Origin: Bryobacterales bacterium
GTDB lineage: Bacteria > Acidobacteriota > Terriglobia > Bryobacterales > Bryobacteraceae
DNA: 64,000 nucleotides
Assembly: GCA_963725455.1 (NCBI GenBank)
Contig: CAVRZH010000112.1
Location: 12,600-76,599, forward strand
Reading direction: 5' to 3'
Shown in pieces: positions 4,594 through 61,343 of this stretch. How positions within the stretch are numbered: position 1 is the stretch's first letter; each line of letters begins with the position of its first letter. Both the position numbers and the translations under genes were made by a program. The notes below the pieces were generated by a model that worked only from the letters and a program-made list of their open reading frames with translations, made no database searches and was not told the origin of the DNA.

Positions 4594-4654
4594 TCGGTAG
4601 ATGAAACCATTCTACAGTCTTGGCGCTCGGAAGCGCACTGCTACAATCGCGCGC

Positions 4655-5437
4655 ATGAGCCGCGTGATGAGCCGTTTTGCCGCGGGGGCGATCGCCGTTG
4701 TCGCTCTTGTCTTTGCCGCTGGCCCGCCCGCCAACGATTTCCGCTTCACCATTCTGGGCGACCGCACTGGCGATGCACAGTCTGGAGTCTACGAACGCGC
4801 CTGGAACGAGATTGACGCCCTGCATCCCGATTTCGTCATCAATGTCGGCGACACCATCCAAGGCGGCAACGATGCAACCGCGGGGTCAGAGTGGCGCGCG
4901 CTCCGACCGCTGTGGGACCGCTATCGTTATCCGATTTACTTCACGCCCGGCAATCACGACATCTGGTCCCCCGCTTCCCGCGCCATCTACGAACAACAAA
5001 CCACGCGTCCGGCGTTTTATGGCTTCAACTATCAGAACGCGCACTTCACCGTGCTGGACAACAGCGAGGCCCCGGATTTGAGCGATCTAAGCGACCAGCA
5101 AATGCAATTTCTAGCCCGGGATCTGGCCCAAAATCGCGATCGCAACCCCAAGTTCGTCTTCTTCCACAAACCTTTCTGGCTCATCCCAGTGAAGTTTCAA
5201 AACAGTCACTTTCCTTTTCATCAACTGATCGCCAGAAATGGCGTGCGTTATGTAGTGAGCGGCCATGGGCATCAGTACGTGCACGCCGTGCTGGATGACG
5301 TCACCTATCTGGAAGCGCCCAGTTCAGGAGGCAAGTTGAAAGGGCAAGGCGTCGCGCAAGGCTGGTTTTACGGCCACGTGCTGGTCACCGTGAAGGGCTC
5401 GAAAGTTGAGATGACGGTGAAGGAAGTCGGACGCTAG
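4655..5437 (+). CDS. Secreted calcineurin-like metallophosphoesterase
   Basis: Motifs GDRTGD, GDTIQGGND, GNHD and SGHGHQY. The track ORF starts at 4601, but the ATG at 4655 gives a signal-peptide-like N-terminus (MSRVMSRFAAGAIAVVALVFAAG) and leaves room for a divergent promoter. The start is uncertain. Confidence 0.8.
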   Translation: MSRVMSRFAAGAIAVVALVFAAGPPANDFRFTILGDRTGDAQSGVYERAWNEIDALHPDFVINVGDTIQGGNDATAGSEWRALRPLWDRYRYPIYFTPGNHDIWSPASRAIYEQQTTRPAFYGFNYQNAHFTVLDNSEAPDLSDLSDQQMQFLARDLAQNRDRNPKFVFFHKPFWLIPVKFQNSHFPFHQLIARNGVRYVVSGHGHQYVHAVLDDVTYLEAPSSGGKLKGQGVAQGWFYGHVLVTVKGSKVEMTVKEVGR

Positions 5438-5439
5438 GG

Positions 5440-6231
5440 CTATTTCTTTATGGGCGCTGGCGGTGGCGGAGGCGGCGGCAGGGGCACAGCGTCGACGTAC
5501 CCACGCTCTCCGTCCGAACGAATGGGCCCTGGACCAAATCCCAAGTGGTCGCGATCCACGGGATTTTCAGCGCACGAATATTCCGCGAGCCGCTGACCCG
5601 GATCGCCCGCTTCCCACGTCCGCGAATAGGTGAAGGTCTTGGTGTAAAACTTCGGATCTTCGATGGTGGTGTCCACGTGGATATGCTTCGCGTCCGGCCG
5701 GGTCCAGCGCTCGATCACGTGCAGGGCGTCGCTGTGCGGACTGCCGTTTTCATCGGCCCACACCTGGGTATCTTTGAACCCAACCGAATCGATCACGAAC
5801 GCATCGCCATCCCAATGGCCCACTTCGTCGCCAAAGAACGAGGGGTCCGGATCGTCGGGATGCTTGCGCCCGTCGGTAGGGATCAGCCGGTAGTAACTGT
5901 AGAAGTAAAGGAACGCAACGAAATTGGGAGTCTGCATCACCATAAACGGCAATCCGCTCGCGTTGTGGCGCGGGATTCCGCCGAGAATGCACAAGGCCTC
6001 GGGATCCACGGTGGCGGTGGTGTTGTGTTTCCAGGCAGCTTCGCCGGCCGGCGTGAGGGGCAATTTATGTCCGGGAAGATCCTTGGCAATATTCCCGCCG
6101 GGTTTGGTGTCCTTCATGCCCTTCCAGAACCCATTCAGGTCCGGGTGCCCATCGGCGGTGCGCGGCGCCTGAGCCGCAACCGGCGCGCAAGCCATCGCCA
6201 AGATCGCGCAAACAGCCGCCAGGAATCGCAT
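5440..6231 (-). CDS. Secreted protein, unnamed family (paralog P1; PDLxGxW, GHWxGDxxV.D and LHV.ER.TR blocks), polyproline C-terminal tail
   Basis: Signal peptide MRFLAAVCAILAMACAPVAAQA from the internal ATG at 6231 (the track ORF extends to 6270). Blocks DGHPDLNGFWKG, GHWDGDAFVIDSVGF, HSDALHVIERWTRP and YSCAEN are shared with ORFs at 8133, 54115 and 55248. The protein ends PLPPPPPPPAPIKK. Confidence 0.75.
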   Translation of the reverse strand: MRFLAAVCAILAMACAPVAAQAPRTADGHPDLNGFWKGMKDTKPGGNIAKDLPGHKLPLTPAGEAAWKHNTTATVDPEALCILGGIPRHNASGLPFMVMQTPNFVAFLYFYSYYRLIPTDGRKHPDDPDPSFFGDEVGHWDGDAFVIDSVGFKDTQVWADENGSPHSDALHVIERWTRPDAKHIHVDTTIEDPKFYTKTFTYSRTWEAGDPGQRLAEYSCAENPVDRDHLGFGPGPIRSDGERGYVDAVPLPPPPPPPAPIKK

Positions 6232-6287
6232 CTCGATGCTAGAGTATATGATGTGATCGACCTTCGTCAATGAAACGGAGACAGCTC

Positions 6288-6704
6288 ATGCGGACCAAAT
6301 TCGCAGCCCTCGTTGCTTTCGCGCTCTCGGCAACCGTTTTGCCGATGGAAGCGCACCATTCTTTCGCGGCCGAATACGACGCCAGCAAAGCCGTCCGCAT
6401 CACCGGCTTGATTAGCAAAGTGGAATGGACCAATCCGCATTCGTATCTATATATAGATGTGAAGGACGATCAGGGCAACTTCGTCACCTGGACCTGCGAG
6501 GGCGGGGCTCCGAACGCTTTATCGCGGCGCGGCTTTCGCAAAAATGACATCAAGCTCGGCGACACCGTCACTATCGACGGCTATGGAGCCAAGGACGGTT
6601 CGCACTTGATGGATGCGCGGCGCATCACGCTGACCGATGGACGAAGCTTTTATAGCGGTTCGCCGGGCGACGGCGGTCCTGGTGATCCAGGAAAAGGTCA
6701 GTAG
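6288..6704 (+). CDS. DUF6152 family periplasmic protein
   Basis: A signal peptide is followed by HHSFAAEYD...ITGLISKVEWTNPHSYLYIDV, the pattern I associate with DUF6152. The ATG at 6288 has GGAGA about 7 nt upstream (the track ORF starts at 6270). Confidence 0.8.
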   Translation: MRTKFAALVAFALSATVLPMEAHHSFAAEYDASKAVRITGLISKVEWTNPHSYLYIDVKDDQGNFVTWTCEGGAPNALSRRGFRKNDIKLGDTVTIDGYGAKDGSHLMDARRITLTDGRSFYSGSPGDGGPGDPGKGQ

Positions 6705-6707
6705 GCA

Positions 6708-7988
6708 CTACGCTACTCCGGCCCGCGCGATGGTTGTGCGACGGCCAATCTGCGTACCGAACACTTTTCGCAGCAGCGGTCTGAAACGAGGATCTTTCCG
6801 CAGCCCTTCGCCGCGCGGGTCTACATTGAGCTGGAATAAGGTGGCGGAATTCTCCCGCCGTGCCCGCTCCAGTTCGGCGAACGCCTGATCCCGTTTGCCT
6901 AGAGCATCCATCAGCAGAGCCACGTAATAGGCGTCCACGTATTCCCGCTCTCGCAGCTTCTGCAACTCATCCAACGCGGCTAGCGCACGGTCCCGTCGTC
7001 CGTTCCTGGCAAGTGAAGCGCCTTCGAGCGCCCGCAGCCACGGCAGATCCGGCGACATCACACAGGCCAGGCGCATTTCGGCGAGCGCTTCGTCCACGCG
7101 TCCGGTGCGTTCCAGGGCTTCGGCATAGTGGGCGCGTCCCACGTGCTGATAAGGATGCAGATCAATGGAGCTTTTTCCGCACACCACGGCTTCGTCAAAC
7201 TCGTGCCTGCACATCCGGATAAACGTCTCCACCGACAGCAGTACCGGACACAGCGGATCCGCCGCGCGGCCGTCGACAATCATCTCCAGCGCGTCGTCCA
7301 ATTGCCCCTTGGTAGAATACAAAATCGCCAGCCGGACGTAGATGGTTCCTAGTTTGGGTTCCTCGCGCAAAGCGTGCTTTAGTTCGGTTTCCGCTTCGTC
7401 CAGTTTTCGCTCGCAAATGTGCAGCGCGTGGCCCCAGTTCGATCGCAGGGACGCGGTCAAACCTCCCAATGCCACGGCCCGCTTGTGCGCTTCCAAAAAC
7501 TGCGGGTACATTTCGATGGGCGGAAGCATTCCATGGGTGCAAAGCAGCAGATGACAAAGTGATATGCCTTCGAACGCCTGGAAGTCGGTTCCATCCTCCC
7601 GCGCAGCCTGCTCGAAACACGCCTTGGCCTTCTCCAAGCCTTCGCGCGTCCGGCGCTCAAAGATGTGCCATCCCTTACGGATTAGGTTCTCCGCCTTTGG
7701 TACTTCCAGCGCATACCCCAGTTTAGGGCGGCAGCGTATCCACGATCCATACTCCTGCAACACCTTCTTCACTTCCACGATTGTCACTGCAACTGTATTT
7801 GGGGAGACTGATATGCCATTCCACGCTTCGCGGATCATCTGCTCGTGATGCACATACCGGCCACTATTCCGAATCAAGACGTTGAGCGCCCGAAATGCCT
7901 GCGGCCGTAATTCCAGTTCGGAATCGCCCCGCCGTAGCCGACGTCCCGCCATGTCTACCGAGAAGGGTCCAAAGGTTATGTGCTCCAT
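6708..7988 (-). CDS. Winged-helix (OmpR/CadC/SARP-type trans_reg_C) DNA-binding domain fused to TPR repeats; no receiver domain
   Basis: The N-terminus FGPFSVDMAGRRLRRGDSELELRPQAFRALNVLIRNSGRYVHHEQMIREAWNG...VAVTIVEVKKVL is a typical trans_reg_C fold signature. The remaining ~320 aa are TPR-like repeats. I saw no obvious TM segment. Confidence 0.85.
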   Translation of the reverse strand: MEHITFGPFSVDMAGRRLRRGDSELELRPQAFRALNVLIRNSGRYVHHEQMIREAWNGISVSPNTVAVTIVEVKKVLQEYGSWIRCRPKLGYALEVPKAENLIRKGWHIFERRTREGLEKAKACFEQAAREDGTDFQAFEGISLCHLLLCTHGMLPPIEMYPQFLEAHKRAVALGGLTASLRSNWGHALHICERKLDEAETELKHALREEPKLGTIYVRLAILYSTKGQLDDALEMIVDGRAADPLCPVLLSVETFIRMCRHEFDEAVVCGKSSIDLHPYQHVGRAHYAEALERTGRVDEALAEMRLACVMSPDLPWLRALEGASLARNGRRDRALAALDELQKLREREYVDAYYVALLMDALGKRDQAFAELERARRENSATLFQLNVDPRGEGLRKDPRFRPLLRKVFGTQIGRRTTIARAGVA

Positions 7989-8013
7989 AGTTCCCAGCCC
8001 ATCGATTTCATAA

Positions 8014-8097
8014 TTTTTTAACCCTGAGTTGTAGTGAATCTAGCATAGAACCGAGCCAAAGGCTAGACGCCATTTAGACGCTGGGGTGAATAGTAAT
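8014..8097 (+). promoter_or_regulatory. Candidate operator/promoter module A (TTTTTTAAC, ATAGAA-N12-CTAGAC-N5-TTAGAC, then AGTAAT)
   Basis: Located in the divergent region between the regulator (start 7988) and gene 8133. In my hand alignment about 48 of the first 69 positions are identical, without gaps, to 9183-9251. Hexamers start at 8045, 8063 and 8074 (spacing 18 and 11 bp), and a -10-like AGTAAT sits at 8092-8097. Confidence 0.5.
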
Positions 8098-8132
8098 TCT
8101 CTAACGCACGCGTACTTGATGGAGAATAGGAT

Positions 8133-9137
8133 TTGAAGCTTCTCGCTCTTCTCCTAGGCTTGGCATGGATTGCGGCTTTCGCCCAAAACACTGCTCCTGC
8201 CGGAGCCATCAGCGGCACTCTTTTCGATTCCATCGGCGATCCGATCGATCACAATGAAGTGCAGGCGGAGAACGCGGATACCCACGCCGTTTTTAAAGCC
8301 ACAACTTCCGCCGCTGGCAAATACATCTTGTCAGGCTTACCGCCCGGCAAGTATTTTGTTGTGGTCTCCGCGCCCGGACTGAAAACATTCGCGATGAAAG
8401 GCGTCGTTGTCAAAGCATCGCTCACCCTTCGGTTCGATATCCACCTTGCCGACACCACGCAGCTCAACACGCTGGGCGAAGATCGCTTGAGGATAACCGA
8501 GGACAACAAGCGAGACCATCCGCCCTCTGGCGCAGCGCCGCGCACTCCCGATGGCAAGCCCGATCTTTCGGGCGTCTGGTGGCAACCCCGCACCGTGGAT
8601 CCCGGCCAGCCTGAGTTTCTGCCTGCGGCGATTGCCATCCAGAAGGAGCGGCTCGAAAATAACTTGAAGGACAGTCCCCAGGCGCACTGCCTGCCGTCTG
8701 CCCCGCTCCGCAATGGTCCGCTGTGGGAGTTCGTCCAGAGCAAGGATTTTCTGGTCTATATTTCAGACGACGAGAGTCCGGGCTTTCATCAGATCTATCT
8801 GGACGGCCGCGGCCATCCTGCCGATCCGAATCCGGCCTGGTACGGTCACTCCATTGGCCGTTGGGACGGCGATACCCTGGTGGTCGATCGCGTCGCTTTC
8901 GATCCGCGAGTCTGGCTCGACATCCAAGCTCATCCGCATTCCGATAAGCTTCACATTATCGAGCGCTACCATCGCCCCGATCTCGGCCATCTCGAAATAG
9001 AAATCACGGTCGACGACCCGGGGGTTCTAGAAAAACCTTGGATACAGAAGCGCGTGGCAGACCTTGCGCACGAAGAGATCTTTGAGTTCATCTGCGCGGA
9101 AAACAACCGCGACCTCCAGCACTTAGTCGGCAAGTAA
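8133..9137 (+). CDS. Secreted fusion protein: CarboxypepD_reg-like domain + unnamed-family domain (paralog P2)
   Basis: TTG start with GGAG 8 nt upstream and signal peptide MKLLALLLGLAWIAAFA. The N-terminal ~100 aa (ISGTLFDSIGDPI...AAGKYILSGLPPGKYFVVVSAPGLKTF) resemble the carboxypeptidase regulatory-like fold. The C-terminal part has DGKPDLSGVWW, GRWDGDTLVVDRVAF, HSDKLHIIERYHRP and FICAEN. Confidence 0.8.
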   Translation: MKLLALLLGLAWIAAFAQNTAPAGAISGTLFDSIGDPIDHNEVQAENADTHAVFKATTSAAGKYILSGLPPGKYFVVVSAPGLKTFAMKGVVVKASLTLRFDIHLADTTQLNTLGEDRLRITEDNKRDHPPSGAAPRTPDGKPDLSGVWWQPRTVDPGQPEFLPAAIAIQKERLENNLKDSPQAHCLPSAPLRNGPLWEFVQSKDFLVYISDDESPGFHQIYLDGRGHPADPNPAWYGHSIGRWDGDTLVVDRVAFDPRVWLDIQAHPHSDKLHIIERYHRPDLGHLEIEITVDDPGVLEKPWIQKRVADLAHEEIFEFICAENNRDLQHLVGK

Positions 9138-9182
9138 CAGCGGCCAACCCCCTCAATAACTTAGACGAATTGAATTTCACAG

Positions 9183-9268
9183 TTTTTTAACAGCAGGCTG
9201 CATGCAATCTGGCTTAGAATCACGACAACGGCTAGACTGTACTTAGACGCTCAGGGTTGGACAGTAAT
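9183..9268 (+). promoter_or_regulatory. Candidate operator/promoter module B, paralogous to 8014-8097
   Basis: Same order and spacing as module A: TTTTTTAAC at 9183, TTAGAA at 9214, CTAGAC at 9232, TTAGAC at 9243 (spacing 18 and 11 bp), AGTAAT at 9263-9268. It lies 73 nt upstream of the receptor ATG. Confidence 0.5.
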
Positions 9269-9340
9269 CTATCTATCAGTTGTCGTAGTATTGGGCACTG
9301 ACCTAAGGCGCTAGCCCATAGTCAAAGGAGAATCAGGGGT

Positions 9341-12300
9341 ATGAGATTCAAGAAGCCACTCAGTATGTGGCTCGCAGTTGCTTCAATGTTGACGCTGTTG
9401 GCCATGTCGGCTTCCATCCTAATGGCCCAATCAGCCGGAACGTCGGGTTTAGCCGGCACGGTAACAGATCCATCCGGCGCAGCCGTTCCCAACGTCAGCG
9501 TAACTATTACCAGCAACGAAACCGGCCTAACGCGCACGGCAACTACCGGAGCCGATGGCACCTATAAGTTCAGCCTGCTGCCGCCGGGCAACTATCACGT
9601 ACGTTTCGCGGCCACCGGCTTTAAAACAGCGGAGGTTGGCGCAGTGACGTTGAACGTCACCGAGACGCCCGAGTTGAACCGTACGCTCGAGATCGGGCAG
9701 CAAACTGAAGAGGTGACTGTAGAAGCCACGGCCGAGAACCTGCAGACCCAAAGCTCCACCCTAGGAAGCGTGGCTACAGGTGCCGAGGTCACGGGTCTTC
9801 CGCTGAGCAATCGCAACTACACGCAGATCCTCAGCCTTGCGGCCGGCGCGAATGCCGCCGTGAACGACGCTCGCTCGCTCGGCAAAGGCACCCAGGACAT
9901 GAGTGTCAACGGAAACTCGCCCGGGTCGAACAACTTTCAGATGGACGGCGTGGCCATCAGTAGCATTGCCCATCCGGATACTGCGAACGATACCAACATC
10001 TATGCGGGCATCGGCATTCCCAGCCCGGATGCCATTCAGGAATTCAAGGTTCAAACATCCACGTATGACGCTAGCTACGGCCGCAATCCGGGCGCCAACG
10101 TCAACGTCGTGACGAAATCGGGTTCCAATCAATTCCACGGGACAGCCTTTGAGTTCTTTCGCAATGGCGATTTGGACGCGAACGACTTTTTCTATAACCG
10201 CGACACTTGCTCTATCACCTATGCGGGACAGAGCTGTCCTCACCAGGTTTTGAATATGAACCAGTTCGGGGGCGTGATCGGCGGGCCAATCAAGAAGGAT
10301 AAGCTTTTCTTTTTCGGTAGCTATCAGGGAACCCGTGAGAAGAACGGCGTAGCTGCGCAGGGCTTTACCGACGCAGTGCTGCCTCCCGTTCCAGCCGGTC
10401 CCAGGAGCACATCCCCCACCTCCGCATGGGCCCAGCAACTGGCCGCTCTGAATTGCACTGGCATCAGCTTTGGCCCGAACGTGGCGTGCAACGGCTCCAA
10501 CCTTAGCCCAGTTGCGCTCAACATCCTGAACCTGAAGCTGCCCAACGGCCAGTATTACTTTCCGAGCACCGGCGCCAGTGTTCCCACCAACGTCGGTTAC
10601 AGCATTCCCGCTCTATACAACGCCGATCAGATGGTCATCAACGGCGACTACCTGATCAACAGCAAGAACACTCTCGCGATGCGTTACTTCTACACGCGCG
10701 ATCCGCAGACCATTCCGCTGAACGGCTTTCTCCCGGGTGAGCCACAGACCGATTATTATTCCAACACCGACGCCTCCATCAAGCTCACCACCATCGTCAC
10801 GAACAGCCTGGTAAACGAACTGCGGGGATCGATGCAGCGCAACCTGGCTCGTTTGACCGATACCCCGATCCCAGGTAGTACGCCCGCCGACCTAGGCATC
10901 ACCCCCCTGGTGCCAGGGCTTCAGTTGACGCCGGGTATCGACATCATCACGGGGGGCTACACGATGTTCGACACCTTCAACCCAGCGTTCAGTCCCACCA
11001 CCGGGATCCAAATTTCCGACCAGGTCTCCTGGTCGCATGGGAAGCACACCATTCGCGCCGGCTACGAGTATGAAGAGAACCAATGGAACATCGTCTACCA
11101 GGGCTTCGAGCGCGGTTGGCTTTTGATGGGCACGTTCAACGATTTCCTGGTCGGCGGTCCAGGCAATGAATTGAGTTGCATCTTTTGCGTAGCCGGCCCT
11201 GAGCAGGGCGTAGTTCACGGCTATCGGCTGCCCGATCAGAACGCCTTCGTGCAGGACGACTACAAAGTCAGTTCTAAGTTCACCCTGAATCTTGGCGTCC
11301 GCTGGGAGTATGACGGTTCATTGAGCGACAAGTACGGAAACTTGACCAACCTGTGGACTAGCCAGTTGCAAAAGGTTCCCGTTCCGCCCACCGGTCCCAA
11401 CATGGGCGCCAACAATCTGGTCGGCTGGGTGGTTCCAGCGAACTACAGCACAGCTACGTACGGAGCAGTGCCGGCCGGTGTTCTGCAGAATTCCGGTAAC
11501 TTGCCGATTTCGAGTCGTGTTCCGCTCAGCAACTTCGCACCCCGAGTGGGATTTGCAGACCAGTTGACCGATAAGCTGGTTCTGCGTGGCGGCGTCGGTT
11601 TGTTCTACGACCGCGTGGATGTCGGCGCTCTGGTGCACGGCCTGGAGCAGGGCCCTCCCTACTCGGGAACCGCCGATGTCGGCTCGGGCAACGAGCAGAC
11701 CCTGGCGAATCCTTTCCCGGTTACTCCGATCGGTGTGTTTCCGCAGCGTTATTTCAATCCGGCATGTTTGAGCGCGGCGCCCACCGCGGCGGCGCCCATC
11801 CCCTGCAACTCCCCCGCCTATAACTCCTATTTGAGCGCGCCGTTCGTTTACCAGGATATGCACACACCCCTGGTGCGCCAGTACAACCTCAACCTGCAGT
11901 ACGAATTCGCGAAGAATTGGGTGTTGGAAACGGCTTATGTGGGATCGAGCGGCATCAACCTGCTGGATGCTTACCACAATTACAATACGGCGCAGTTGGC
12001 AAGTGCCAGCAACCCCATCAACGGCCAGACCACGAACTCGCTGGAAAACGTAGCTCTGCGCGTTCCCTATCTCGGTTATCAGCCGGTAGGCGTGCAGGGT
12101 AGCGCATTCGATGGTAGCTCCAACTACAACAGTCTGCAGGTAACGCTCCGCAAAAGCTTTTCCCACGGACTTTTTGTGCAGGCGTCTTACACCTATAGCA
12201 AGGACTTGACCGACATCAACTACTACAGTGGCGGAGCGGTGGGCGCGAACATCAACAACGCAAGCAACCTGGCCGCACAGTACGGACCGGCGTATTTCAG

Positions 12301-12904
12301 CCGGCCGCAACGTGTAGTCATCAATTATAGCTACGATCTGCCCCTCGGCACTCACCAGGGCGCCCTCGGCAAGCTGCTCAGCGGCTGGAATGTCTCGGGC
12401 GTAACCACCATCCAGGATGGTGGGCCTATGACGATCATCGATCCAAACGCGGGGTCCATCTATGGCACGAACTCCGTTGCCAATACGGCGCAGCTTTGTC
12501 CCGGACAGACCTACAGTTCCATCCTTTCAAGCGGCGGCCTTACCTCCCGCCTGGGTGGCAACAGCGGTGGCTCCGGCTACTTTAACTCCAACGCGTTTTG
12601 CTCCGCTCCAACCGGAGGCATCTACGGCAACGGAACGGGGTATGGCGACTCGGGCGTTGGTATCGTTCTGGGCCCCGGTCAATTCAACTGGGACATCACA
12701 ATCGTGAAGACGACAAAAATCACCGAACGCCAGACACTGATATTCCGCACCGAGTTCTTCAACGCCTTCAATCACGCTCAGTTCAACAATCCGCTCGCTA
12801 CGCCCTCCCCGGGCTTAGCTGAACTGGGATCAACGTTCGGTGAAATCACTTCCACCAGCGTCAATCCCAGGATTCTGCAGTTTGGGCTCAAGTACGTCTT
12901 TTAG
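9341..12904 (+). CDS. TonB-dependent outer-membrane receptor with N-terminal CarboxypepD_reg domain (acidobacterial type)
   Basis: 1187 aa with RBS AAAGGAGAA upstream and a signal peptide. GLAGTVTDPSGAAVPNVSVTITSNETGLTRTATTGADGTYKFSLLPPGNYHV is a CarboxypepD_reg signature. This is followed by a plug-like region, a long beta-rich region and a C-terminal aromatic residue (GLKYVF). Confidence 0.9.
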   Translation: MRFKKPLSMWLAVASMLTLLAMSASILMAQSAGTSGLAGTVTDPSGAAVPNVSVTITSNETGLTRTATTGADGTYKFSLLPPGNYHVRFAATGFKTAEVGAVTLNVTETPELNRTLEIGQQTEEVTVEATAENLQTQSSTLGSVATGAEVTGLPLSNRNYTQILSLAAGANAAVNDARSLGKGTQDMSVNGNSPGSNNFQMDGVAISSIAHPDTANDTNIYAGIGIPSPDAIQEFKVQTSTYDASYGRNPGANVNVVTKSGSNQFHGTAFEFFRNGDLDANDFFYNRDTCSITYAGQSCPHQVLNMNQFGGVIGGPIKKDKLFFFGSYQGTREKNGVAAQGFTDAVLPPVPAGPRSTSPTSAWAQQLAALNCTGISFGPNVACNGSNLSPVALNILNLKLPNGQYYFPSTGASVPTNVGYSIPALYNADQMVINGDYLINSKNTLAMRYFYTRDPQTIPLNGFLPGEPQTDYYSNTDASIKLTTIVTNSLVNELRGSMQRNLARLTDTPIPGSTPADLGITPLVPGLQLTPGIDIITGGYTMFDTFNPAFSPTTGIQISDQVSWSHGKHTIRAGYEYEENQWNIVYQGFERGWLLMGTFNDFLVGGPGNELSCIFCVAGPEQGVVHGYRLPDQNAFVQDDYKVSSKFTLNLGVRWEYDGSLSDKYGNLTNLWTSQLQKVPVPPTGPNMGANNLVGWVVPANYSTATYGAVPAGVLQNSGNLPISSRVPLSNFAPRVGFADQLTDKLVLRGGVGLFYDRVDVGALVHGLEQGPPYSGTADVGSGNEQTLANPFPVTPIGVFPQRYFNPACLSAAPTAAAPIPCNSPAYNSYLSAPFVYQDMHTPLVRQYNLNLQYEFAKNWVLETAYVGSSGINLLDAYHNYNTAQLASASNPINGQTTNSLENVALRVPYLGYQPVGVQGSAFDGSSNYNSLQVTLRKSFSHGLFVQASYTYSKDLTDINYYSGGAVGANINNASNLAAQYGPAYFSRPQRVVINYSYDLPLGTHQGALGKLLSGWNVSGVTTIQDGGPMTIIDPNAGSIYGTNSVANTAQLCPGQTYSSILSSGGLTSRLGGNSGGSGYFNSNAFCSAPTGGIYGNGTGYGDSGVGIVLGPGQFNWDITIVKTTKITERQTLIFRTEFFNAFNHAQFNNPLATPSPGLAELGSTFGEITSTSVNPRILQFGLKYVF

Positions 12905-12923
12905 TCCCTGGCATTGAAGATTG

Positions 12924-12965
12924 TGGCCGCGGCTCTCACCTTGAGTCGCGGCCATTTTCTTTTTC
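12924..12965 (+). terminator. Rho-independent terminator downstream of the TonB-dependent receptor gene
   Basis: TGGCCGCG (12924-12931) pairs with CGCGGCCA (12947-12954). The stem can extend inward by 4 more pairs. It is followed by TTTTCTTTTTC. Confidence 0.75.
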
Positions 12966-12998
12966 GGTGTGCCACATCCAACCCCGTAAAATGGCCGT

Positions 12999-13511
12999 AT
13001 GGTACCCGTTCTTGAAACCGAGAGGCTCAAACTTCGCGGCCACCGTCTTGAAGATTTTGCGGCTTCGGCTGCGATGTGGGCCGACCCAATTGTCACTCGT
13101 TACTTCGGTCATTCGTTTATCGAAGAAGAGTCTTGGACCAGGTTTCTGCGGTATGTGGGCCATTGGGACCTGCTGGGCTTTGGTTATTGGCTGGTCGAAG
13201 AAAAGGCCAGTGGGAATTTCGTAGGCGAAATCGGATTCGCGGACTACAAGCGCGATATCCAATCGTCGGTGGAGCTGGCGCCGGAAATTGGTTGGGTGCT
13301 GGCCGCCGCGTCGCACGGTAAGGGCTACGCCACAGAGGCAGTTCGCGCCGCCACCGAATGGGGCGACCGGAATTTTGAAGCGTCCCAGACTACCTGCATC
13401 ATCCATCCGGAGAATCTTCCATCAATTCGCGTAGCCGAGAAATGCGGTTACAGGGAATTTGAACGGACCGCGTACAAGGGACAGCCTTCCGTGGTGTTTG
13501 TGCGTGCGTGA
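12999..13511 (+). CDS. GNAT family N-acetyltransferase (RimJ/RimL-like)
   Basis: 170 aa. The N-terminal LETERLKLRGHRLEDF and the core GEIGFADY...GWVLAAASHGKGYATEAV are typical of Acetyltransf_3 GNATs. Confidence 0.8.
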   Translation: MVPVLETERLKLRGHRLEDFAASAAMWADPIVTRYFGHSFIEEESWTRFLRYVGHWDLLGFGYWLVEEKASGNFVGEIGFADYKRDIQSSVELAPEIGWVLAAASHGKGYATEAVRAATEWGDRNFEASQTTCIIHPENLPSIRVAEKCGYREFERTAYKGQPSVVFVRA

Positions 13512-44194: not shown

Positions 44195-46576
44195 CTATTT
44201 CACTTGCGCCAGCAGGTTCCGAAGCTCGGTTGCGGTTTCCGCCGGTGGTTTCTTGGACAACGCCGTCTCCACCTGAAGCCTCGCAGCGGAAGAATTACCG
44301 GTGTCAGCCAACGCAACCGCATAGTGATAGCGGAACGTCACGTCGTCGGGATGCTCCTTGGTTAGCGCTTCCAGAATCCGAAGCGCGGCGGACTCATTGT
44401 GCAGCTTGATTTGCACCCACGCCAAGGTGTCCTGCAACTGGGGAGCGTTGGGTGCTTTCAGGATGGCCCTGTTCACCAGGCGCAAAGCTTCCGCGGTATC
44501 GCCACCAGTGTCCGCGATCAGGAATGCCAGATTGTTGAGCGTTGCCGGATCGTCTGGCGACTTTGTAAGAGCCTTGCGGTAGTTCTGGATGGCTTCCGAT
44601 TTCTTGCCCAAGCGCTCCTGCAGGTTCGCGACCACTTGATCCAGGCCCTTGCGATCCGGAGCCAGCTGGCGCGCTCTTTCGAACGCCTGTAGCGACTCTT
44701 GCAGCTTGCCATTGGCCTGCTCCAAAGCGCCAATCCGGATCTGCACATCAGCCGAAGTCGGATTCTGCGCGGCCATCTTCTGCAGTTCCGAAAGCGCCAT
44801 ATCCTTTTTCCCATCGGCTTCCGCTGTAGCGATGAGGAGCGCCTCCTTCCCCTTAGATTCCGGAGAATGTTGTGTTTCTTGCTCCATCAACGCCAAGGCG
44901 CGGTCTGGCATATGTTCCGCCTCGAACGTGTTTACCAGCCCGGCCAGGGGCTGAATGTCGGGTGACCCTTCCTTGTAGAGTTTGCGGAACAGTTGTTCGG
45001 CCTCCGCGTAGTGCCCTTGTCCCAGCGCGATGACGCCCAGTTGCATCTCCACCTGGGGCGCGTCCTTGGTGTCATGGGCCAGTTGCTCAGCCTCGGTCTT
45101 AGCCGCTCCGTAGGAGTGCGTCCCGGTCAAACCAATCACGCGAAAAAGCCGCGCGCTCGGATCGCTGCTGCGAATCCTTAGAGCCGCGTCGGCATGTTGC
45201 AGCACAGCGGCATAGTTTTTCCGCGCCACTTCCAGGCGCGCCAAAGCCAATTGCGCGGTCTCCGATGGTGGATTGGCCTGGGCCGCGTTTTGAAGATGCG
45301 AGTATGCTTCGTCCACCTTGCCTGCGAGCAGGAGAGCCTGCCCGGCCAGCAGTTGAAGCCTCGTGTTATTGGGAGCCTCTTTTACAAGATCGGTTGCCAG
45401 GGTGGCCGCTGCATTCAAGTTCTGTGCTCCGCCCATCCGCTCCAGTGCCTGTACTTTCAGAGCACGGGCAAATTGGTTCTTCGGATCCTTGGCCAGGATG
45501 TCGTCCGCGGCCTTGATTGCATCCGGGAATTTCCCCAGCTTGGCCAGCGTGCTGGCTATCCGTTCCTGGTAGACCTGCAGGCGCTCATGATCCTTGGATT
45601 CACCCCGCTGATAATCCGCCAGCGCCTTGTCCAGATTGCGCGTCAAGGAATGAAAATCCCCCACCAGCAAATCCGCCTGTGGGAACTGAGCACGCCGGTC
45701 GAGCAGCGAGTCCAGCGTTTTCTCGGCATTCTCCGGCTGCTTTCGAGCGTAGTAGAACGACGCCAGACGGAGTATTGGACTCGATTCCTTGGGGTTATTC
45801 GCCACCCACGACTTCAAAAGCGCCTCCGCTTTTTCCCAGTTTTGCTGCGATGCGTAAATGGCGTACAACACTTCGTACGACTGGTTATATTGCGGATGCT
45901 GGTCCAAGGTTTGCCGCGCCGTCTTCTCGGATTCATCGATTTGGTTGTCACGCAGCAGCGCCCGGGCCAAGTCGCTTTGCACTTCCGCGTTACCCGGCGC
46001 GATCCCAGCCGCTTCCCGCAGACTTTGCACGGCGGCGCCCGGCTGATTGTCGATCAGCGACAGCGCGCCTTTTAAACGCAGGCCTTCCATGCGATTGCCC
46101 CCCGGCGCCAGTAGTTCATCGGCGATGGCCATGGCTTGCTTGTAGAATGCGGGGGGGTGCTTTGCATCGCGCGTATAGATAATCAGTGCCAAGTTCGCAA
46201 GTTGTATCTTGGCTGGAACATTCTTCGCATCGAGCGACACTGCGCGGCCGAAGGCCTGATAGGCATTACCCACCTGGTTTTGCTTCTCCAGCGTCAGTCC
46301 AAGATGGTAATAAGCGTCGCCGGAATTGGGGCTCTTCTTGATCGCATTCCGATAGTTGAGCGCCGCGTCGGCATACTTCCCATCGGCCGCCAGCTTGTTG
46401 CCCCGGTCAATGTATTGAGCGGCGCTTTTGCCGCATGCCACCACGCACAGGCTGGCCACGACACACACCAGCGCCGGAAAAATTGCGGGCAAGCTATGCG
46501 TCCGCGCGCAGCCGATCCGACGTTCAGGAAGTTGGGGAGGCGTCAAAATCTTACGGTAGCATAGCGCGGAGTTCAT
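44195..46576 (-). CDS. Large TPR-repeat lipoprotein
   Basis: 793 aa with a lipobox-like SLCVVACGKS. TPR motifs run essentially end to end (e.g. GKYADAALNYRNAIKKSPNSGDAYYHLGLTLEKQ). Confidence 0.8.
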   Translation of the reverse strand: MNSALCYRKILTPPQLPERRIGCARTHSLPAIFPALVCVVASLCVVACGKSAAQYIDRGNKLAADGKYADAALNYRNAIKKSPNSGDAYYHLGLTLEKQNQVGNAYQAFGRAVSLDAKNVPAKIQLANLALIIYTRDAKHPPAFYKQAMAIADELLAPGGNRMEGLRLKGALSLIDNQPGAAVQSLREAAGIAPGNAEVQSDLARALLRDNQIDESEKTARQTLDQHPQYNQSYEVLYAIYASQQNWEKAEALLKSWVANNPKESSPILRLASFYYARKQPENAEKTLDSLLDRRAQFPQADLLVGDFHSLTRNLDKALADYQRGESKDHERLQVYQERIASTLAKLGKFPDAIKAADDILAKDPKNQFARALKVQALERMGGAQNLNAAATLATDLVKEAPNNTRLQLLAGQALLLAGKVDEAYSHLQNAAQANPPSETAQLALARLEVARKNYAAVLQHADAALRIRSSDPSARLFRVIGLTGTHSYGAAKTEAEQLAHDTKDAPQVEMQLGVIALGQGHYAEAEQLFRKLYKEGSPDIQPLAGLVNTFEAEHMPDRALALMEQETQHSPESKGKEALLIATAEADGKKDMALSELQKMAAQNPTSADVQIRIGALEQANGKLQESLQAFERARQLAPDRKGLDQVVANLQERLGKKSEAIQNYRKALTKSPDDPATLNNLAFLIADTGGDTAEALRLVNRAILKAPNAPQLQDTLAWVQIKLHNESAALRILEALTKEHPDDVTFRYHYAVALADTGNSSAARLQVETALSKKPPAETATELRNLLAQVK

Positions 46577-53070: not shown

Positions 53071-53976
53071 CTAGTGAGGGTCGGCGTAGACGCTTTTGAC
53101 GAATCCCGCTGCGTTCGTGTTGGGCCAATCGGGATGCAACGTTTTGAGAGCTGTGCTGACTTCTTTCCCAGCGTCATCCGCCGACACACCCTTTTGCTTG
53201 AGAGCGAGCGCTCGTGTGCGAATTTCCGATATCAGCTTTCGCTCCTCCGCAACCAGCGAACCATCGCCGGGAGCACTGTGGTCGGGCAGGACGTGCGCCA
53301 CGTTGAGGCTCGCGATTTTATCCACCACGGCCAGCCACGTAGTAGGCGTGCCACCGTCGCCGAAGATCATCGGCATGGTCTTGTTCTGCACGACGTCGCC
53401 CGAAATCAGCGTGCGATCCGGCTCAACAAAGGTAAGCTCATCGCCCTTGGTGTGCGCTTCGCCGAACCAGATCAGGCGCGCCGCCACGCCGCCCAGATCG
53501 ATCCTCGCTTCTTGATCGAACATCACGTCAGGGGTGCGCAACACCACGCCCGCGAGCAACTCACTGTTCTGCGCTGAACCCTTGCTGAACATATCGATCA
53601 TCTCCTGCCCGTGCTTCTCCATTTCTTTCTGCTGCATTGTGTTGCGGATCAGGATCGTGCTGGGAGGAAAGCCGGGCTCGCCGGCGGCGTGCTCCGGATG
53701 GAAGTGGGTTGTGGTGAGGAACAGCTTGTGGTTATTGGGCGCCAGTTTGGTGGCCACGCGCGCGGCCGTAGCTCCATTTTTCGGGCCCAGGCCCGTATCC
53801 ACCACCAGCGTTGCGCGGCTACCAACCACGATAGCGATGTTAGGAAAGCCCATAATCGCCCAGACGTGGTCGGAAACCTGGGTCGTCTTCTCGCTAACCA
53901 GGGGCTGGGCCATTTGCCCGAATGCGCCGGCGGTCGTCAGAGCGGCCAGCGCCAAGACTTTCGTGGGTGACTTCAT
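53071..53976 (-). CDS. Secreted MBL-fold metallo-hydrolase
   Basis: Signal peptide MKSPTKVLALAALTTAGAFG from the ATG at 53976 (the track ORF extends to 54096). The metal motif is THFHPEH (an HxHxEH variant of HxHxDH), with later H and D residues. Confidence 0.8.
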   Translation of the reverse strand: MKSPTKVLALAALTTAGAFGQMAQPLVSEKTTQVSDHVWAIMGFPNIAIVVGSRATLVVDTGLGPKNGATAARVATKLAPNNHKLFLTTTHFHPEHAAGEPGFPPSTILIRNTMQQKEMEKHGQEMIDMFSKGSAQNSELLAGVVLRTPDVMFDQEARIDLGGVAARLIWFGEAHTKGDELTFVEPDRTLISGDVVQNKTMPMIFGDGGTPTTWLAVVDKIASLNVAHVLPDHSAPGDGSLVAEERKLISEIRTRALALKQKGVSADDAGKEVSTALKTLHPDWPNTNAAGFVKSVYADPH

Positions 53977-54114
53977 AGTCTTTCCCTTGTACCATGCCAA
54001 GATTCGGGCCGGCGCCGGATACGACGAATAGGTAGGATTTCTGAACTCGGCAGCGACGTTCCCTCGTGGTGCATCGGCCCGCCGAGGGATGAGCACCCAA
54101 GGCCGTTTACACGC

Positions 54115-55233
54115 TTATTTCGCCGCTGCTTCCTTAGCCTCATGCCGGCGGGCGCCTCGTAATATATCGGCGAGCGCGTAATTGCCTTCGTGGCAGGCAT
54201 ATTCGTAAATCGGCTTGCTGGTCGCCGGCCAGGCGTACTCGCCGGTCCAGGGCCGGTCCCACGTTTCCGGGTCTTCCACGGTGAACCGATACAGCAGCGT
54301 TTGGTTGTCGACGCGGGTGAAACGCTCCACTACGTGGAGATTTTCCGTGGATCCGCGAAAGCGTGTCTTGTCGTTGAAATTCGTGGTGTCCACAACCAAC
54401 GTGTCGCCTTCCCAATGGCCCACCGAGTCACCCATCCAGCGGCGAATATTTTTCGGCAGATGTTGCGCGTTCATTCGCACGATGCGGGCGTCGTGTACCA
54501 TCTCGCTTAGAATCATGATCGAATCGGGAGTCTGCACAATCTGGTGCAGATCGTTATAGAAATAATCTGGAAGCGCCGGTGGCCCGGACGTGGAACCGAA
54601 CCCAAGCAGACAGCGCTCGCCTAAAGGCCGCTGCTCCGGATTATCGAACGCGCCGGGCGGTTCGGCCGTCGGGTCCTGGCTTTCGCGTGCGTCCGAGGTT
54701 GGCGCCGCCTGGGCGGCCGCTAGCCGTTTGCGCGCGATGGCATTGTAGGGAGGCACGCGTCCATCCGGCGGATCCACTACAATCGACGTTCGAATCTGAC
54801 CGTCCACCATGGTGTATGCCGAACCCTGCTGCAGCCAGAAATGATTGTAGCCACCGACGGTGCCGCCACCGGCCCGCTCCAGAATTTCAAAGAACGATTT
54901 AGGCTCGCTCTTATCGCCACCCACCGGCGGGGCGGGGCGATCCGCTGATTCCTGCTGGTTATCCTTGGCTCTGCGCGCTGTTTCAGCCTTCTCCAGCGCC
55001 TGCGCTTTCTCTTTGCTCAGAAACGGTGGATCTCCAGGCAGCCGTTCGAGCGGCGTCATCATTGAGAGATCGTAGGTGCCTCCCAGGTCCGGATGTCCGT
55101 CGGGTGTGCGAGGTCCCGGCGATTGAGCGGCCAAGGGCAGACCGGCCAAAGGAAGACCGGCCATAGAAAGAGCGGCGAAAGACAGCAGCGCAAGCGCGAG
55201 ATTCCGCATATCAATCCGCATATCACTTCGCAT
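54115..55233 (-). CDS. Secreted protein, unnamed family (paralog P3, with a ~130-aa low-complexity insertion)
   Basis: The ATG at 55233 has GGAGG 9 nt upstream, overlapping the stop of the upstream paralog. Blocks DGHPDLGGTYD, GHWEGDTLVVDTTNFND, LHVVERFTRV, VEDPETWDRPW and YACHEGN. Confidence 0.75.
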   Translation of the reverse strand: MRSDMRIDMRNLALALLSFAALSMAGLPLAGLPLAAQSPGPRTPDGHPDLGGTYDLSMMTPLERLPGDPPFLSKEKAQALEKAETARRAKDNQQESADRPAPPVGGDKSEPKSFFEILERAGGGTVGGYNHFWLQQGSAYTMVDGQIRTSIVVDPPDGRVPPYNAIARKRLAAAQAAPTSDARESQDPTAEPPGAFDNPEQRPLGERCLLGFGSTSGPPALPDYFYNDLHQIVQTPDSIMILSEMVHDARIVRMNAQHLPKNIRRWMGDSVGHWEGDTLVVDTTNFNDKTRFRGSTENLHVVERFTRVDNQTLLYRFTVEDPETWDRPWTGEYAWPATSKPIYEYACHEGNYALADILRGARRHEAKEAAAK

Positions 55234-55247
55234 AACCAGGTGCCTCC

Positions 55248-56102
55248 TTACTTGCTCAGGGGATGCTTTCGATACTGGCCATACAACAACTCTTCCACAA
55301 ACTCGGCGCACTTGAAATCCAGGAGTTGTGCATTCTTTTCCTGGCGGCGGTACAGCGGCATACTGATCCGCCATGCGCGCGTGAAGACCTCCGGATCGTC
55401 AATCGTGGCCTGGTAGGAGATTACCTCCGGACTGGTGCGGGTGTAGCGCTCCACAACGTGCAGTTTGTCGCTGTGGAAGTCCCCGGCGCGGTCAAACCAG
55501 CTCTGATCGTTGAAGCCGGTGACGTCGATCACCAGCGTTTCGCCCTCCCAGTGTCCGACGGACTGGCCCATCCAGGAATCTGTTGGAGCGGGTCCGGGAT
55601 CTTTCAGAAAAATGTTCCGCACCGCACCCGCATATTCGTAGACGAACGTCAGCGCGTTCGCGCTTTCGAGGACCTGAAACGGATACGGCATGTAGTTGGC
55701 GCGTGGCACGCCGGGGAGATAGCATTTGATCTCGGGGTCGCGGTTCAACCAGTCCTGCTGGTTCTGCTTTTTGCGCGCGAGCGCCTCGGGCTTGTAGGGG
55801 ATCTCGCCGCCCTCCACCACGCCCAGGCCGGGCGGGACTGCGCCGACCGAGCCCAGCGCCAGGACAGCAGCGGCCGGCACCGGACCGTATGGCCCGGGGC
55901 GCAGCGCCAGCGCAGGCCGTGCGTCGTGACCTTGCAGGTCGTAATTCGCTTCGTTGAGCGCCTGCCAGATTCCGTTCAGATCGGGCTTGCCGCCGGGCCC
56001 GAGTGGCGCGTGATAAGACTGCCCGGCCAGCGGCATCACGCCGATCGCTACGATTGCCGCCAGGGCGCATCTGGCTTTGGGTCTGCGAGGGATTCTTCTC
56101 AT
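55248..56102 (-). CDS. Secreted protein, unnamed family (paralog P4)
   Basis: Blocks GGKPDLNGIWQAL, KCYLPGVPR, GHWEGETLVIDVTGFND, HSDKLHVVERYTRT, IDDPEVFTRAW and FKCAEF. Confidence 0.75.
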   Translation of the reverse strand: MRRIPRRPKARCALAAIVAIGVMPLAGQSYHAPLGPGGKPDLNGIWQALNEANYDLQGHDARPALALRPGPYGPVPAAAVLALGSVGAVPPGLGVVEGGEIPYKPEALARKKQNQQDWLNRDPEIKCYLPGVPRANYMPYPFQVLESANALTFVYEYAGAVRNIFLKDPGPAPTDSWMGQSVGHWEGETLVIDVTGFNDQSWFDRAGDFHSDKLHVVERYTRTSPEVISYQATIDDPEVFTRAWRISMPLYRRQEKNAQLLDFKCAEFVEELLYGQYRKHPLSK

Positions 56103-60335: not shown

Positions 60336-60691
60336 GTGCGAGATGCCGGCTTCACCACCACGGCGGTGCCGTAACAAAGCACCTCAGTCACTCCTTGCAT
60401 GATTTCCGTCGCGTCATAGCGAACTCCTACCACCGCGTTGGCGCCCAGTTGAGCGGCGTGCTGTGCCATGCGCTGGTAGGCGTGGGCACGGGTTTCCTCG
60501 CAGAGATTGGTAAAGAGCGTGATGTCGCCGCCCACCATGGTTTGCAGGCTGGCGCCCAGGGTTCCGAAAATGGAGCGGGACCGCACGATAATGCCACGTA
60601 CGATCCCGATGGTACGGTCAATGGCGAAGCCATCCAGCGTAAACGCGGTGGTCACCATGGAATCGAGCACGGCTAGTGAATCGTCAGCCAT
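60332..60691 (-). CDS. YbjQ/UPF0145 family protein
   Basis: IVRGIIVRSRSIFGTLGASLQTMVGGDITLFTNLCEETRAHAYQRMAQHAAQLGANAVVGVRYD is a close match to the YbjQ_1 pattern. Confidence 0.85.
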   Translation of the reverse strand: MADDSLAVLDSMVTTAFTLDGFAIDRTIGIVRGIIVRSRSIFGTLGASLQTMVGGDITLFTNLCEETRAHAYQRMAQHAAQLGANAVVGVRYDATEIMQGVTEVLCYGTAVVVKPASRT

Positions 60692-60812
60692 CGCGGTAAG
60701 GCTAGTATTTTAGCATTGGCCGCGGCAGTGGCGGTTCGGACGGGGCGCCAAACATAGAGCGACCGCGCGGCCGGGTTGGCCCACCGCTTCCATAGGTTTG
60801 CTCTCGAGGCTG

Positions 60813-61109
60813 TTACTGCGGCTTGTTCCCCTCGAGTTTCCCAACACGCTCCGAGAGCGATTCCATCTCCAGATCGATAGCGCGCAATGCCGCCGCGTGG
60901 GTACGCTGGCGTGCGTCGGAAGGAGATGCCCAATTGTGAAAGGCGGTCAGCAGCTTCGTTTCCGTGATCTCGACTCGTTCGTCAACGTACGTTCGCAATC
61001 GAGTCTCCATCGCGTCAAGTCGTGTTTGCAATCCAGTTTCAACGCCATCGATGCGCGCAGTGAGACGACCCTCAAGCTGCGTGAACGCCTGTTGTAAATC
61101 CTGATCCAC
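60813..61109 (-). CDS. Small coiled-coil hypothetical protein
   Basis: 98 aa with heptad-like repeats (LEGRLTARIDGVETGLQTRLDAMETRLRTYVDERV). Divergent from glgP. There is no homology call, and coding status rests on ORF length and position only. Confidence 0.45.
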   Translation of the reverse strand: MDQDLQQAFTQLEGRLTARIDGVETGLQTRLDAMETRLRTYVDERVEITETKLLTAFHNWASPSDARQRTHAAALRAIDLEMESLSERVGKLEGNKPQ

Positions 61110-61343
61110 GAGCTCAGCTTAGCACTTTCCCCTTTCCGCAATTTTCCACCGTTCACCCTAGGCGAAATTCGCCACCTGCCGATGGAATTAAGTAGGCGAG
61201 GAGGGGGAGCGGCGGTCGCGCCGCTTGAAGAGAAATTAATGGAGCGTATCTAACTGATTATGCAGCCGACCATTACGGGAGCCACGTCCAAGGTATGGGC
61301 GCGCTCATGCCCGGTGTTATATTTGAGAGTCAATCGTTAGTCC

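Follow-up and report, generated by a model that had tools for sequence, protein, structure and literature searches.

The window examined here is a 64,000-nucleotide (64-kb) stretch of contig CAVRZH010000112.1 from a bacterium of the order Bryobacterales (Acidobacteriota). The subject is a run of five genes at 5440-12904, in which a TonB-dependent receptor lies together with a one-component regulator and three further exported proteins. Two of these exported proteins, designated P1 and the fusion protein, share a domain called P below; the third belongs to the Pfam family DUF6152. On balance, and with some reserve, we read the region as two conserved modules side by side: module A (5440-6704), made of the P1/DUF6152 pair, and module B (6708-12965), made of the regulator, the fusion gene, and the receptor gene. 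The anatomy of the locus is ordinary for Acidobacteria. What is new is the presence of undescribed exported partners in a regulated TonB-dependent locus, together with an adjoining conserved gene pair.

Genes and promoter elements of the locus

Gene coordinates are based on the list of open reading frames (ORFs) of the window and their translations, and domains were assigned by Pfam and NCBIfam scans. All five ORFs, with their strands and domains, agree with a preliminary description made from the letters of the sequence. P1 (5440-6231, minus strand) encodes an exported, stand-alone P-domain protein of 263 aa that begins with a signal peptide and ends in a Pro-rich tail. It is preceded by a sigma70-like candidate promoter at 6243-6270 on the minus strand (TTGACG-16-TATACT, 10 of 12 positions matching, a consensus match only). 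An alternative in-frame TTG start for P1 lies at 6270, and because the sigma70-like site occupies 6270-6243, the start at 6231 is the likelier. The DUF6152 gene (6288-6704, plus strand) encodes an exported protein with a predicted oligonucleotide/oligosaccharide-binding (OB) fold. Its start at 6288 is preferred over 6270 because GGAGA lies 6 nt upstream and orthologues begin at the equivalent Met. There follow the regulator gene (6708-7988, minus strand), the gene for the CarboxypepD_reg::P-domain fusion (8133-9137, plus strand; 334 aa, TTG start, signal peptide), and the gene for the 1187-aa TonB-dependent receptor (9341-12904, plus strand). An intrinsic terminator, a stem with a T-run at 12923-12965 on the plus strand, closes the receptor gene, as was first claimed; the stem at 12923-12955 has 13 bp, 9 of them GC pairs, before the T-run TTTCTTTTTC. 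Read from the translations, the N-termini of all four proteins other than the regulator resemble signal peptides, and none has a lipobox cysteine.

The regulator is a one-component protein in which an N-terminal winged helix of the OmpR/PhoB type, beginning near residue 3, is followed by TPR repeats. Trans_reg_C (PF00486) matches residues 23-94 with E=6.5e-10, in addition to TPR_19, TPR_14, and TPR_2, and a sequence search of PDB aligns the winged helix to the DNA-binding domains of KdpE and PhoB. Neither Pfam nor NCBIfam gives a Response_reg match at E<=0.01, which upholds the receiver-less architecture described at the outset; lacking a receiver domain, the protein is not a two-component response regulator. 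AfsR and the Streptomyces antibiotic regulatory proteins (SARPs) resemble it as receiver-less winged-helix proteins with TPR repeats, but Pfam finds no BTAD domain and solely TPR families after its winged helix, and it is therefore not a SARP. Reading of the sequence showed no long hydrophobic stretch. The likeness to HilA lies in the C-terminal TPR domain and is one of architecture only; with NF009037, the NCBIfam model for HilA/EilA, the protein reaches 22.9 bits where the cut-off is 589, and the match is confined to the winged helix. A 793-aa protein encoded at 44195-46576, considered as a second regulator from a jackhmmer search, was rejected as TPR-only.

The fusion protein matches Pfam CarboxypepD_reg at residues 26-105 (E=3.5e-16), and its C-terminal part has no Pfam family. 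These last 200 or so residues are paralogous to P1, as the preliminary description had it, with 35% identity over 222 aa (E=2e-36), while the N-terminal Ig-like domain is paralogous to the N-terminal extension of the receptor at 33% identity. Homologs of the fusion number 6,591 proteins at E<=0.001; the best 120 of these are full-length, 73-100% identical, and all matched by CarboxypepD_reg.

The barrel of the receptor is matched at residues 257-1180 by the whole 838-position OMP_b-brl_4 model (Pfam, E=2.2e-177), and the N-terminal extension by CarboxypepD_reg (Pfam, E=5.5e-22). The Plug match, at residues 157-249, is weak: its 19.2 bits (E=0.0018) fall short of the 23.9 cut-off. Reading by eye suggests a TonB-box-like EEVTVEA near residues 122-128 and a putative signal peptide with its end between LMA and QS, and shows a C-terminus in KYVF with its terminal Phe. 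Like the SusC-type transporters of polysaccharide utilization loci in Bacteroidota, the receptor carries an Ig-like CarboxypepD_reg domain in front of a very large barrel, and its gene sits in a locus of its own together with genes for a regulator and for an exported accessory protein; the candidate signal peptide, TonB box, and plug would fit the same plan. It differs in that the locus has neither a SusD-like lipoprotein nor glycoside hydrolases; Pfam gives no SusD family match among the neighbors of the receptor (the fusion protein, the regulator, and a GNAT protein). The accessory protein here is instead the CarboxypepD_reg::P fusion, which is not a lipoprotein, and the TonB_dep_Rec_b-barrel and SusC models are absent from the nine Pfam families and one NCBIfam family listed.

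The fusion and receptor genes are each preceded by a copy of a module of about 100 bp, delimited by aligning the 144-bp and 203-bp intergenic regions; the two copies have a mean column identity of 74%. Copy 1 (8001-8100, plus strand) lies before the fusion gene, and copy 2 (9168-9272, plus strand) before the receptor gene. A two-copy nhmmer profile matches only these two sites in the 64-kb window, confirming the duplicated upstream module with direct repeats proposed earlier for both genes; the same search finds no module at P1 or DUF6152. The string TAGAC-N6-TAGAC occurs exactly twice in the window, once at each copy. Read base by base, the layout consists of a first direct repeat pair (DR1), 23 nt, a -10-like TAGAAy, a second pair (DR2), then 12-14 nt and AGTAAT. 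In copy 1 these elements are TTTCAT-N5-TTTAAC at 8006-8022, TAGAAC at 8046-8051, CTAGAC-N5-TTAGAC at 8063-8079, and AGTAAT at 8092-8097; in copy 2 they are TTTCAC-N5-TTTAAC at 9175-9191, TAGAAT at 9215-9220, CTAGAC-N5-TTAGAC at 9232-9248, and AGTAAT at 9263-9268. The hexamers of both pairs stand in an 11-bp register, one helical turn, and the -10-like hexamers are accompanied by no -35 element.

This arrangement recalls the pho box. The regulator has a winged helix of the OmpR/PhoB family, and the promoters combine hexamers phased at 11 bp with a -10-like element and lack a -35. The module differs in that DR1 stands 23 nt from the -10-like hexamer, against 10 nt in the pho box, and in that a second repeat pair follows; binding by the regulator is putative here. 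A reading of the module as an RNA element was rejected. No Rfam match at E<=1 was found over 5000-13500, the consensus fold reaches -1.75 kcal/mol with no compensatory pairs or covariation, and folding of the 5' untranslated region has a z-score of +0.97. The module is accordingly taken to be a DNA element.

Distribution of the two modules

Relatives of module B were collected around the fusion gene in 80 metagenome contigs plus three long contigs (L-numbers denote fetched loci). Just one very close relative, L088, has all five genes in the order of the window, with identities of 92% for P1, 96% for DUF6152, 87% for the regulator, 90% for the fusion, and 91% for the receptor. L090 and L094 retain the regulator beside the fusion gene, with or without the receptor gene. 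The order in L091, L098, L099, L102, and L114 is regulator (minus strand), receptor, fusion, receptor, with regulators 55-60% identical to that of the window; many further fusion loci read receptor, fusion, receptor, and arrays of two or three paralogous receptors occur in related loci. The regulator lies divergently upstream in 10 loci, and its orthologues upstream of related clusters have the identical architecture of Trans_reg_C plus TPR. Among fusion orthologues with both flanks available, the receptor gene directly abuts the fusion gene in 12 of 16 at 80% identity or more, in 4 of 16 at 75-80%, and in none of 5 below 75%.

Both copies of the promoter module are kept in L088 and L090, the two closest metagenome relatives (E=5e-24 to 3e-12). 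In the six-copy alignment with the window, DR1, TAGAA, DR2, and AGTAA are invariant blocks, while the spacers vary and carry signatures specific to fusion-type or receptor-type copies. From these invariant blocks and copy-specific spacers it follows that the duplication predates the three genomes and that selection acts on the blocks. The exact DR2 pattern GGCTAGAC-N5-TTAGACGCT was not found in the first 87 loci, and a hidden Markov model (HMM) of the module located it in L088 and L090 only. Receptors of more distant clusters are preceded by TTTGAC-N5-TTTGAC-N23-TACAAT and share with the window a spacer motif, AATCTGG. A regular expression for DR-N21-25-TAnAAT has 9 matches in the 2.25 Mb of fetched DNA, all of them 160-200 bp upstream of receptors in fusion-type clusters; the pattern precedes none of about 35 receptors in loci centered on P1.

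Module B is thus a real, recurring, and specifically promoted unit. Since regulator, fusion, and receptor recur together with a cluster-specific promoter architecture, a dedicated regulon covering 8133-12904 is a reasonable reading. Such a regulon, first suggested from the two module copies, would not take in P1 and DUF6152, which have no module.

The P1/DUF6152 pair of module A is distinct from module B and far more widespread. It was followed in a P1-centered sample of 80 species-level genomes, mostly labelled Acidobacteriota (Bryobacterales, Terriglobia, Vicinamibacterales), that also holds one gammaproteobacterial metagenome-assembled genome (MAG) and three bins labelled Actinomycetota (Solirubrobacteraceae, Rugosimonospora, Bifidobacteriaceae). 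In 66 of the 80 species no more than 1 kb separates the P1-type gene from a DUF6152 gene (divergent as in the window in 35, DUF6152 before P in 24, and P before DUF6152 in 7), and tblastn recovers a few more. Of the 80 species, 7 have a receptor gene no more than 1.5 kb from the P1-type gene and 30 have one inside 10 kb, the crude background, taken from one receptor per 64 kb in the window, being about 5% adjacent and about 38% within 10 kb by chance. The regulator is found near P1 in 1 of 80 species. In L019 and L069, the nearest of the genomes to the window on the side of P1 (P1 90-92% identical), the order SurA-like/Metallophos/P1/DUF6152 is kept, and no regulator, fusion, or receptor stands beside DUF6152. 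The Metallophos gene of the window (4601-5437, plus strand) encodes an exported calcineurin-like phosphoesterase and converges on P1 with a 2-bp gap.

Several other genes recur beside the pair. Two membrane proteins of the DUF6644 type, for which only a sub-threshold DUF2214 match was found, are encoded within 1.5 kb of P1/DUF6152 in 12 of 80 loci. Genes for an SrpI-like encapsulin (Family-2A-type shell, PF19307) and a cysteine desulfurase (Aminotran_5) lie directly beside P1 orthologues in L003, L006, L017, and L062. In L003 (7697-10852) the stop of the desulfurase gene overlaps the start of P1, and the run, which is downstream of a receptor gene, continues to DUF6152 and two DUF6644 genes; a weak rhodanese-like match there (21.0 bits) is below its 22.2 cut-off, and L002 has a weak glutaredoxin match. 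A protein of about 416 aa with a CxxCH heme motif and no Pfam family travels with a redoxin-domain protein of about 439 aa near the pair in some 8-10 P1 loci (for example at L039 10295-11545 and L060 12174-13493). On a plasmid of Novosphingobium humi (NZ_CP103870.1; L168, 6098-10834), GH39-like, P, and DUF6152 genes form a tight run in which the GH39-like gene precedes P on the same strand with a 14-bp gap and P and DUF6152 overlap by 4 bp; a TetR gene follows DUF6152, and a divergent DUF6644 pair lies alongside. A plasmid of Croceibacterium atlanticum has the order DUF6152, DUF6152, P, TonB-dependent receptor, MarR. In L001 (8390-9529) and L018, from a Terriglobia MAG, a winged-helix/TPR regulator 54% identical to that of the window is convergent to DUF6152/P1, as in the window, with a P-like gene, DUF4154, a classical TonB-dependent receptor, and a CarboxypepD_reg receptor upstream of it. 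Long DUF6152 "fusions" in L074 and L076 were discarded as spurious upstream extensions of ORFs in high-GC DNA.

The preliminary description took all five genes for one import system centered on the regulator, with P1 and DUF6152 as dedicated periplasmic partners under the same control, and in the light of this distribution we now think that improbable. The five-gene order does recur in L088 at 87-96% identity, but L019 and L069, syntenic with the window on the P1 side, have no regulator, fusion, or receptor. The regulator beside DUF6152/P1 in L001 and L018, with a P-like gene and two receptors upstream, speaks for a single system, as do the P domain common to P1 and the fusion and the DUF6152-DUF6152-P-receptor row on the Croceibacterium plasmid; yet the regulator is near P1 in just 1 of 80 species, and most module B clusters (L089-L119) are without P1 and DUF6152. 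Within the window itself, P1 and DUF6152 lack the promoter module, and P1 has a promoter-like site of its own. The co-localization predicted for relatives is borne out for P1 with DUF6152 (66 of 80) and for the fusion with the receptor (12 of 16 at 80% identity or more), but at best weakly for a receptor adjacent to P1/DUF6152 (7 of 80, about twice a crude background). The juxtaposition of modules A and B is recent.

The P domain and DUF6152

P1 has no Pfam or NCBIfam family, and its more than 1,700 homologs are all named hypothetical. Profile searches of 1.84 billion representatives place 18,360 clusters (50% identity) in the P family at E<=1e-3 and 10,297 at E<=1e-10. Among 125 diverse members, no Pfam or NCBIfam model matches the P domain itself, and only accessory domains are recognized: an N-terminal CarboxypepD_reg in 5 and a c-type cytochrome in 1, while several members are tandem P-P proteins. 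Near-invariant residues, in P1 numbering, are the Cys pair C81/C220, W140, E174, R175, R115, D192, and P193; H171 is conserved within the P1 and fusion subfamilies. The P1 orthologues end in a Pro-rich tail, APLPPPxxPxxPxKK, after GFGPGPIRPDGxRGY (the P1 tail is encoded at 5440-5490 of the window), and the fusion and other paralogues are without it.

The window has four P copies. Two of these are tandem paralogues of 419 and 284 aa encoded at 54115-56102 on the minus strand, neither with a Pfam family, and no DUF6152, receptor, or promoter module accompanies them. This second locus is flanked by genes for a metallo-beta-lactamase-fold protein and a Pyr_redox_2/Fer4_20 oxidoreductase (53071-54096 and 56154-57779, both minus strand). 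Beyond it, at 57918-63893, lie glycogen-type genes unrelated to the locus, GH57 plus DUF3536 (819 aa, minus strand) and alpha-glucan phosphorylase plus DUF3417 (849 aa, plus strand).

The AlphaFold2 (AF2) model of P1 has a mean predicted local distance difference test (pLDDT) of 72 and a predicted template modelling score of 0.70. It presents a helix followed by a beta-barrel, with 8 strands listed at residues 96-208 and an extra N-terminal strand at 34-38; the P domain is thus modelled as a disulfide-bearing beta-barrel. Sequence and profile searches of PDB with P gave no matches at E<=10, and Foldseek of the model against PDB found nothing significant (best E=0.08), so that no characterized family was matched. 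Best among the weak matches were calycin-type barrels such as streptavidin, CRABP2, and Tp0751, with TM-scores of 0.45-0.57 on the target and about 0.2-0.3 on the query. The helix and eight-strand pattern, with these weak matches, likens the model to the calycins (lipocalins, avidins, fatty-acid- and retinoid-binding proteins, Tp0751). It differs from them in being about twice the size and having a conserved disulfide, and all matches are at E>=0.08. Neither that disulfide nor the N-terminal PDL[S/N]GxW motif of P is, we assume, associated with calycins.

The DUF6152 protein matches PF19649 with 104.8 bits against a cut-off of 27 (E=2.6e-30), and source records name its homologs DUF6152. Its AF2 model is an OB-fold (pLDDT 73), for which Foldseek returns the anticodon-binding domain of lysyl-tRNA synthetase (LysRS) and the single-stranded DNA-binding protein SSB at E about 5e-4 to 3e-3. 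Sequence and profile searches of PDB gave a spurious match to EF-1alpha alone (E=1.7). In an alignment of 97 sequences (96 from related loci plus that of the window), conservation is 90% or higher both for HHSF directly after the predicted signal-peptide cleavage site and for a WxNPH loop. Three copies of DUF6152 from Sphingomonads (Alphaproteobacteria) likewise have Ala followed by HHS[F/Y], and NPH. Histidine-brace metal sites are typically marked by an invariant His as the first residue of a mature periplasmic protein. The HHS[F/Y] and NPH motifs are a lead, taken from conservation, to a putative metal- or ligand-binding site.

CopC/YobA, CopD/YebZ, and YcnI invite comparison, DUF6152 being small and exported, with His as mature residue 1 if the inferred cleavage is right, and often encoded beside the small polytopic DUF6644 membrane pair (12 of 80 loci), in the manner of CopC with CopD. 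The differences are that hhalign shows no profile relation, that CopC is an Ig-like sandwich and DUF6152 an OB-fold, that DUF6152 is without a Met-rich motif, and that metal binding by DUF6152 is putative. A relation to CopC/CopD was dropped after a negative hhalign comparison and is retained as a functional analogy only. The predicted OB-fold is also that of the copper chaperone CusF. Literature searches found no publication on DUF6152/PF19649, DUF6644, PF20349, or PF25183, and nothing on CarboxypepD_reg TonB-dependent receptors of Acidobacteria or on histidine-brace OB-fold periplasmic proteins. The early statement that no component other than the receptor has an assigned function thus agrees with the lack of a Pfam or NCBIfam model or PDB match for P and of a publication on DUF6152.

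It is possible, if rather unlikely, that the P protein and DUF6152, with the DUF6644 pair and the receptor as facultative members, form an undescribed periplasmic trafficking system found in several phyla, in which the histidine-brace-like His-His binds a metal or thiophilic ligand that is exchanged with the P barrel. Were this so, the link to genes for the encapsulated cysteine desulfurase, rhodanese, and redoxin would point to metal/sulfur handling.

A still less probable alternative makes the P domain a periplasmic enzyme (a hydrolase, lyase, isomerase, or redox-linked enzyme) that acts on an imported compound or an envelope component, with DUF6152 as a partner that delivers metal or presents substrate. 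The charged residues E174, R175, R115, and D192, invariant or nearly so, and H171 in the P1 and fusion subfamilies would suit an active site, but they could equally be structural salt bridges, and P has no sequence or fold similarity to any catalytic family. One P member is fused to a c-type cytochrome, redox and sulfur genes are recurrent neighbors (the CxxCH protein with redoxin, cysteine desulfurase with encapsulin, and the rhodanese-like protein), and the GH39-like gene lies directly upstream of P in Novosphingobium; the neighbors vary, however, from genome to genome.

Proposed mechanism and significance

What the analysis shows is which genes and domains are present, their folds (at moderate confidence), and how far the genes are conserved and co-localized; from this we infer every functional step of the scheme that follows. 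In this scheme module B is a regulated uptake locus and module A a portable pair, a reading toward which we are cautiously inclined. The cytoplasmic winged-helix/TPR regulator would bind one 11-bp-phased repeat pair head-to-tail, as a dimer or oligomer, and make the contact that a -35 element would otherwise provide, like PhoB at the pho box, activating the -35-less promoters; the TPR domain presumably senses the signal. Autoregulation is likely, since copy 1 of the module starts 13 bp from the regulator's own ATG. The receptor would import a compound through the outer membrane, and the fusion would work with it in the periplasm, probably docking at the same periplasmic site as the N-terminal extension of the receptor; the two proteins have their Ig-like domain in common. 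The P barrel of the fusion may then take over or process the imported ligand. P1 and DUF6152 would constitute a periplasmic two-protein unit with its own promoters, in which DUF6152 probably provides the metal or ligand site. Such a portable ligand-handling unit could deliver to, or receive from, a receptor or the DUF6644 membrane proteins, and would be combined, according to the genome, with a receptor, the DUF6644 pair, the encapsulated cysteine desulfurase, or the heme/redoxin pair.

Several observations weigh against this scheme. For module B, just 6 of the 26 fusion loci whose upstream flank reaches 5.5 kb or more show the regulator, and below 80% identity many orthologues of the fusion stand without a receptor beside them. 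The regulator, whose binding is putative, may occupy either repeat pair; if TAGAAT is the -10, DR2 sits downstream of it, which would suit a repressor site or a second promoter. For module A, enrichment of receptors near P1/DUF6152 is at best weak, the 30 of 80 within 10 kb being no commoner than the crude background and the 7 of 80 adjacent only about twice that background. The regulator beside DUF6152/P1 in L001 and L018 is a caveat to the separation of the two modules, and could be what is left of a link between them. As to the proteins, the term "ligand-binding barrel" for P is drawn solely from the topology of the model, and the N-terminus of DUF6152 has pLDDT <50, so that the model does not support proximity of the HH and NPH motifs. 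Comparison by hhalign gave a probability of 0.3% for DUF6152 with YobA of Escherichia coli and 0.1% for DUF6644 with YebZ, in a weak test with single-sequence templates.

That the adjacency reflects nothing but local duplication and drift among abundant CarboxypepD_reg receptors, winged-helix/TPR regulators, and P genes, as the huge P family (18,360 clusters at E<=1e-3) with its four copies in the window, the arrays of two or three paralogous receptors in related loci, and the stray contexts of the fusion in L085 and L087 might suggest, is quite improbable, given the receptor flanking 12 of 16 close fusion orthologues, the cluster-specific promoter pattern, and the adjacency of P1 and DUF6152 in 66 of 80 species, extending across phyla.

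Acidobacteria are among the most abundant soil bacteria, and their genomes are rich in CarboxypepD_reg TonB-dependent receptors, of whose substrates, partners, and regulation little is known. The reading of the locus as a regulated uptake module beside a portable gene pair gives several handles on them. In module B the receptor comes with a one-component regulator of its own and a defined promoter motif confined to this type of cluster; its exported partner is a recurrent one, and the P domain of that partner is a member of a family of about 18,000 clusters without a Pfam model. Module A offers the P/DUF6152 pair, which is kept intact in Acidobacteriota and Sphingomonadales alike, among the latter in Novosphingobium and Croceibacterium strains that are in culture and amenable to genetics. 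A function for this pair would annotate thousands of hypothetical proteins.

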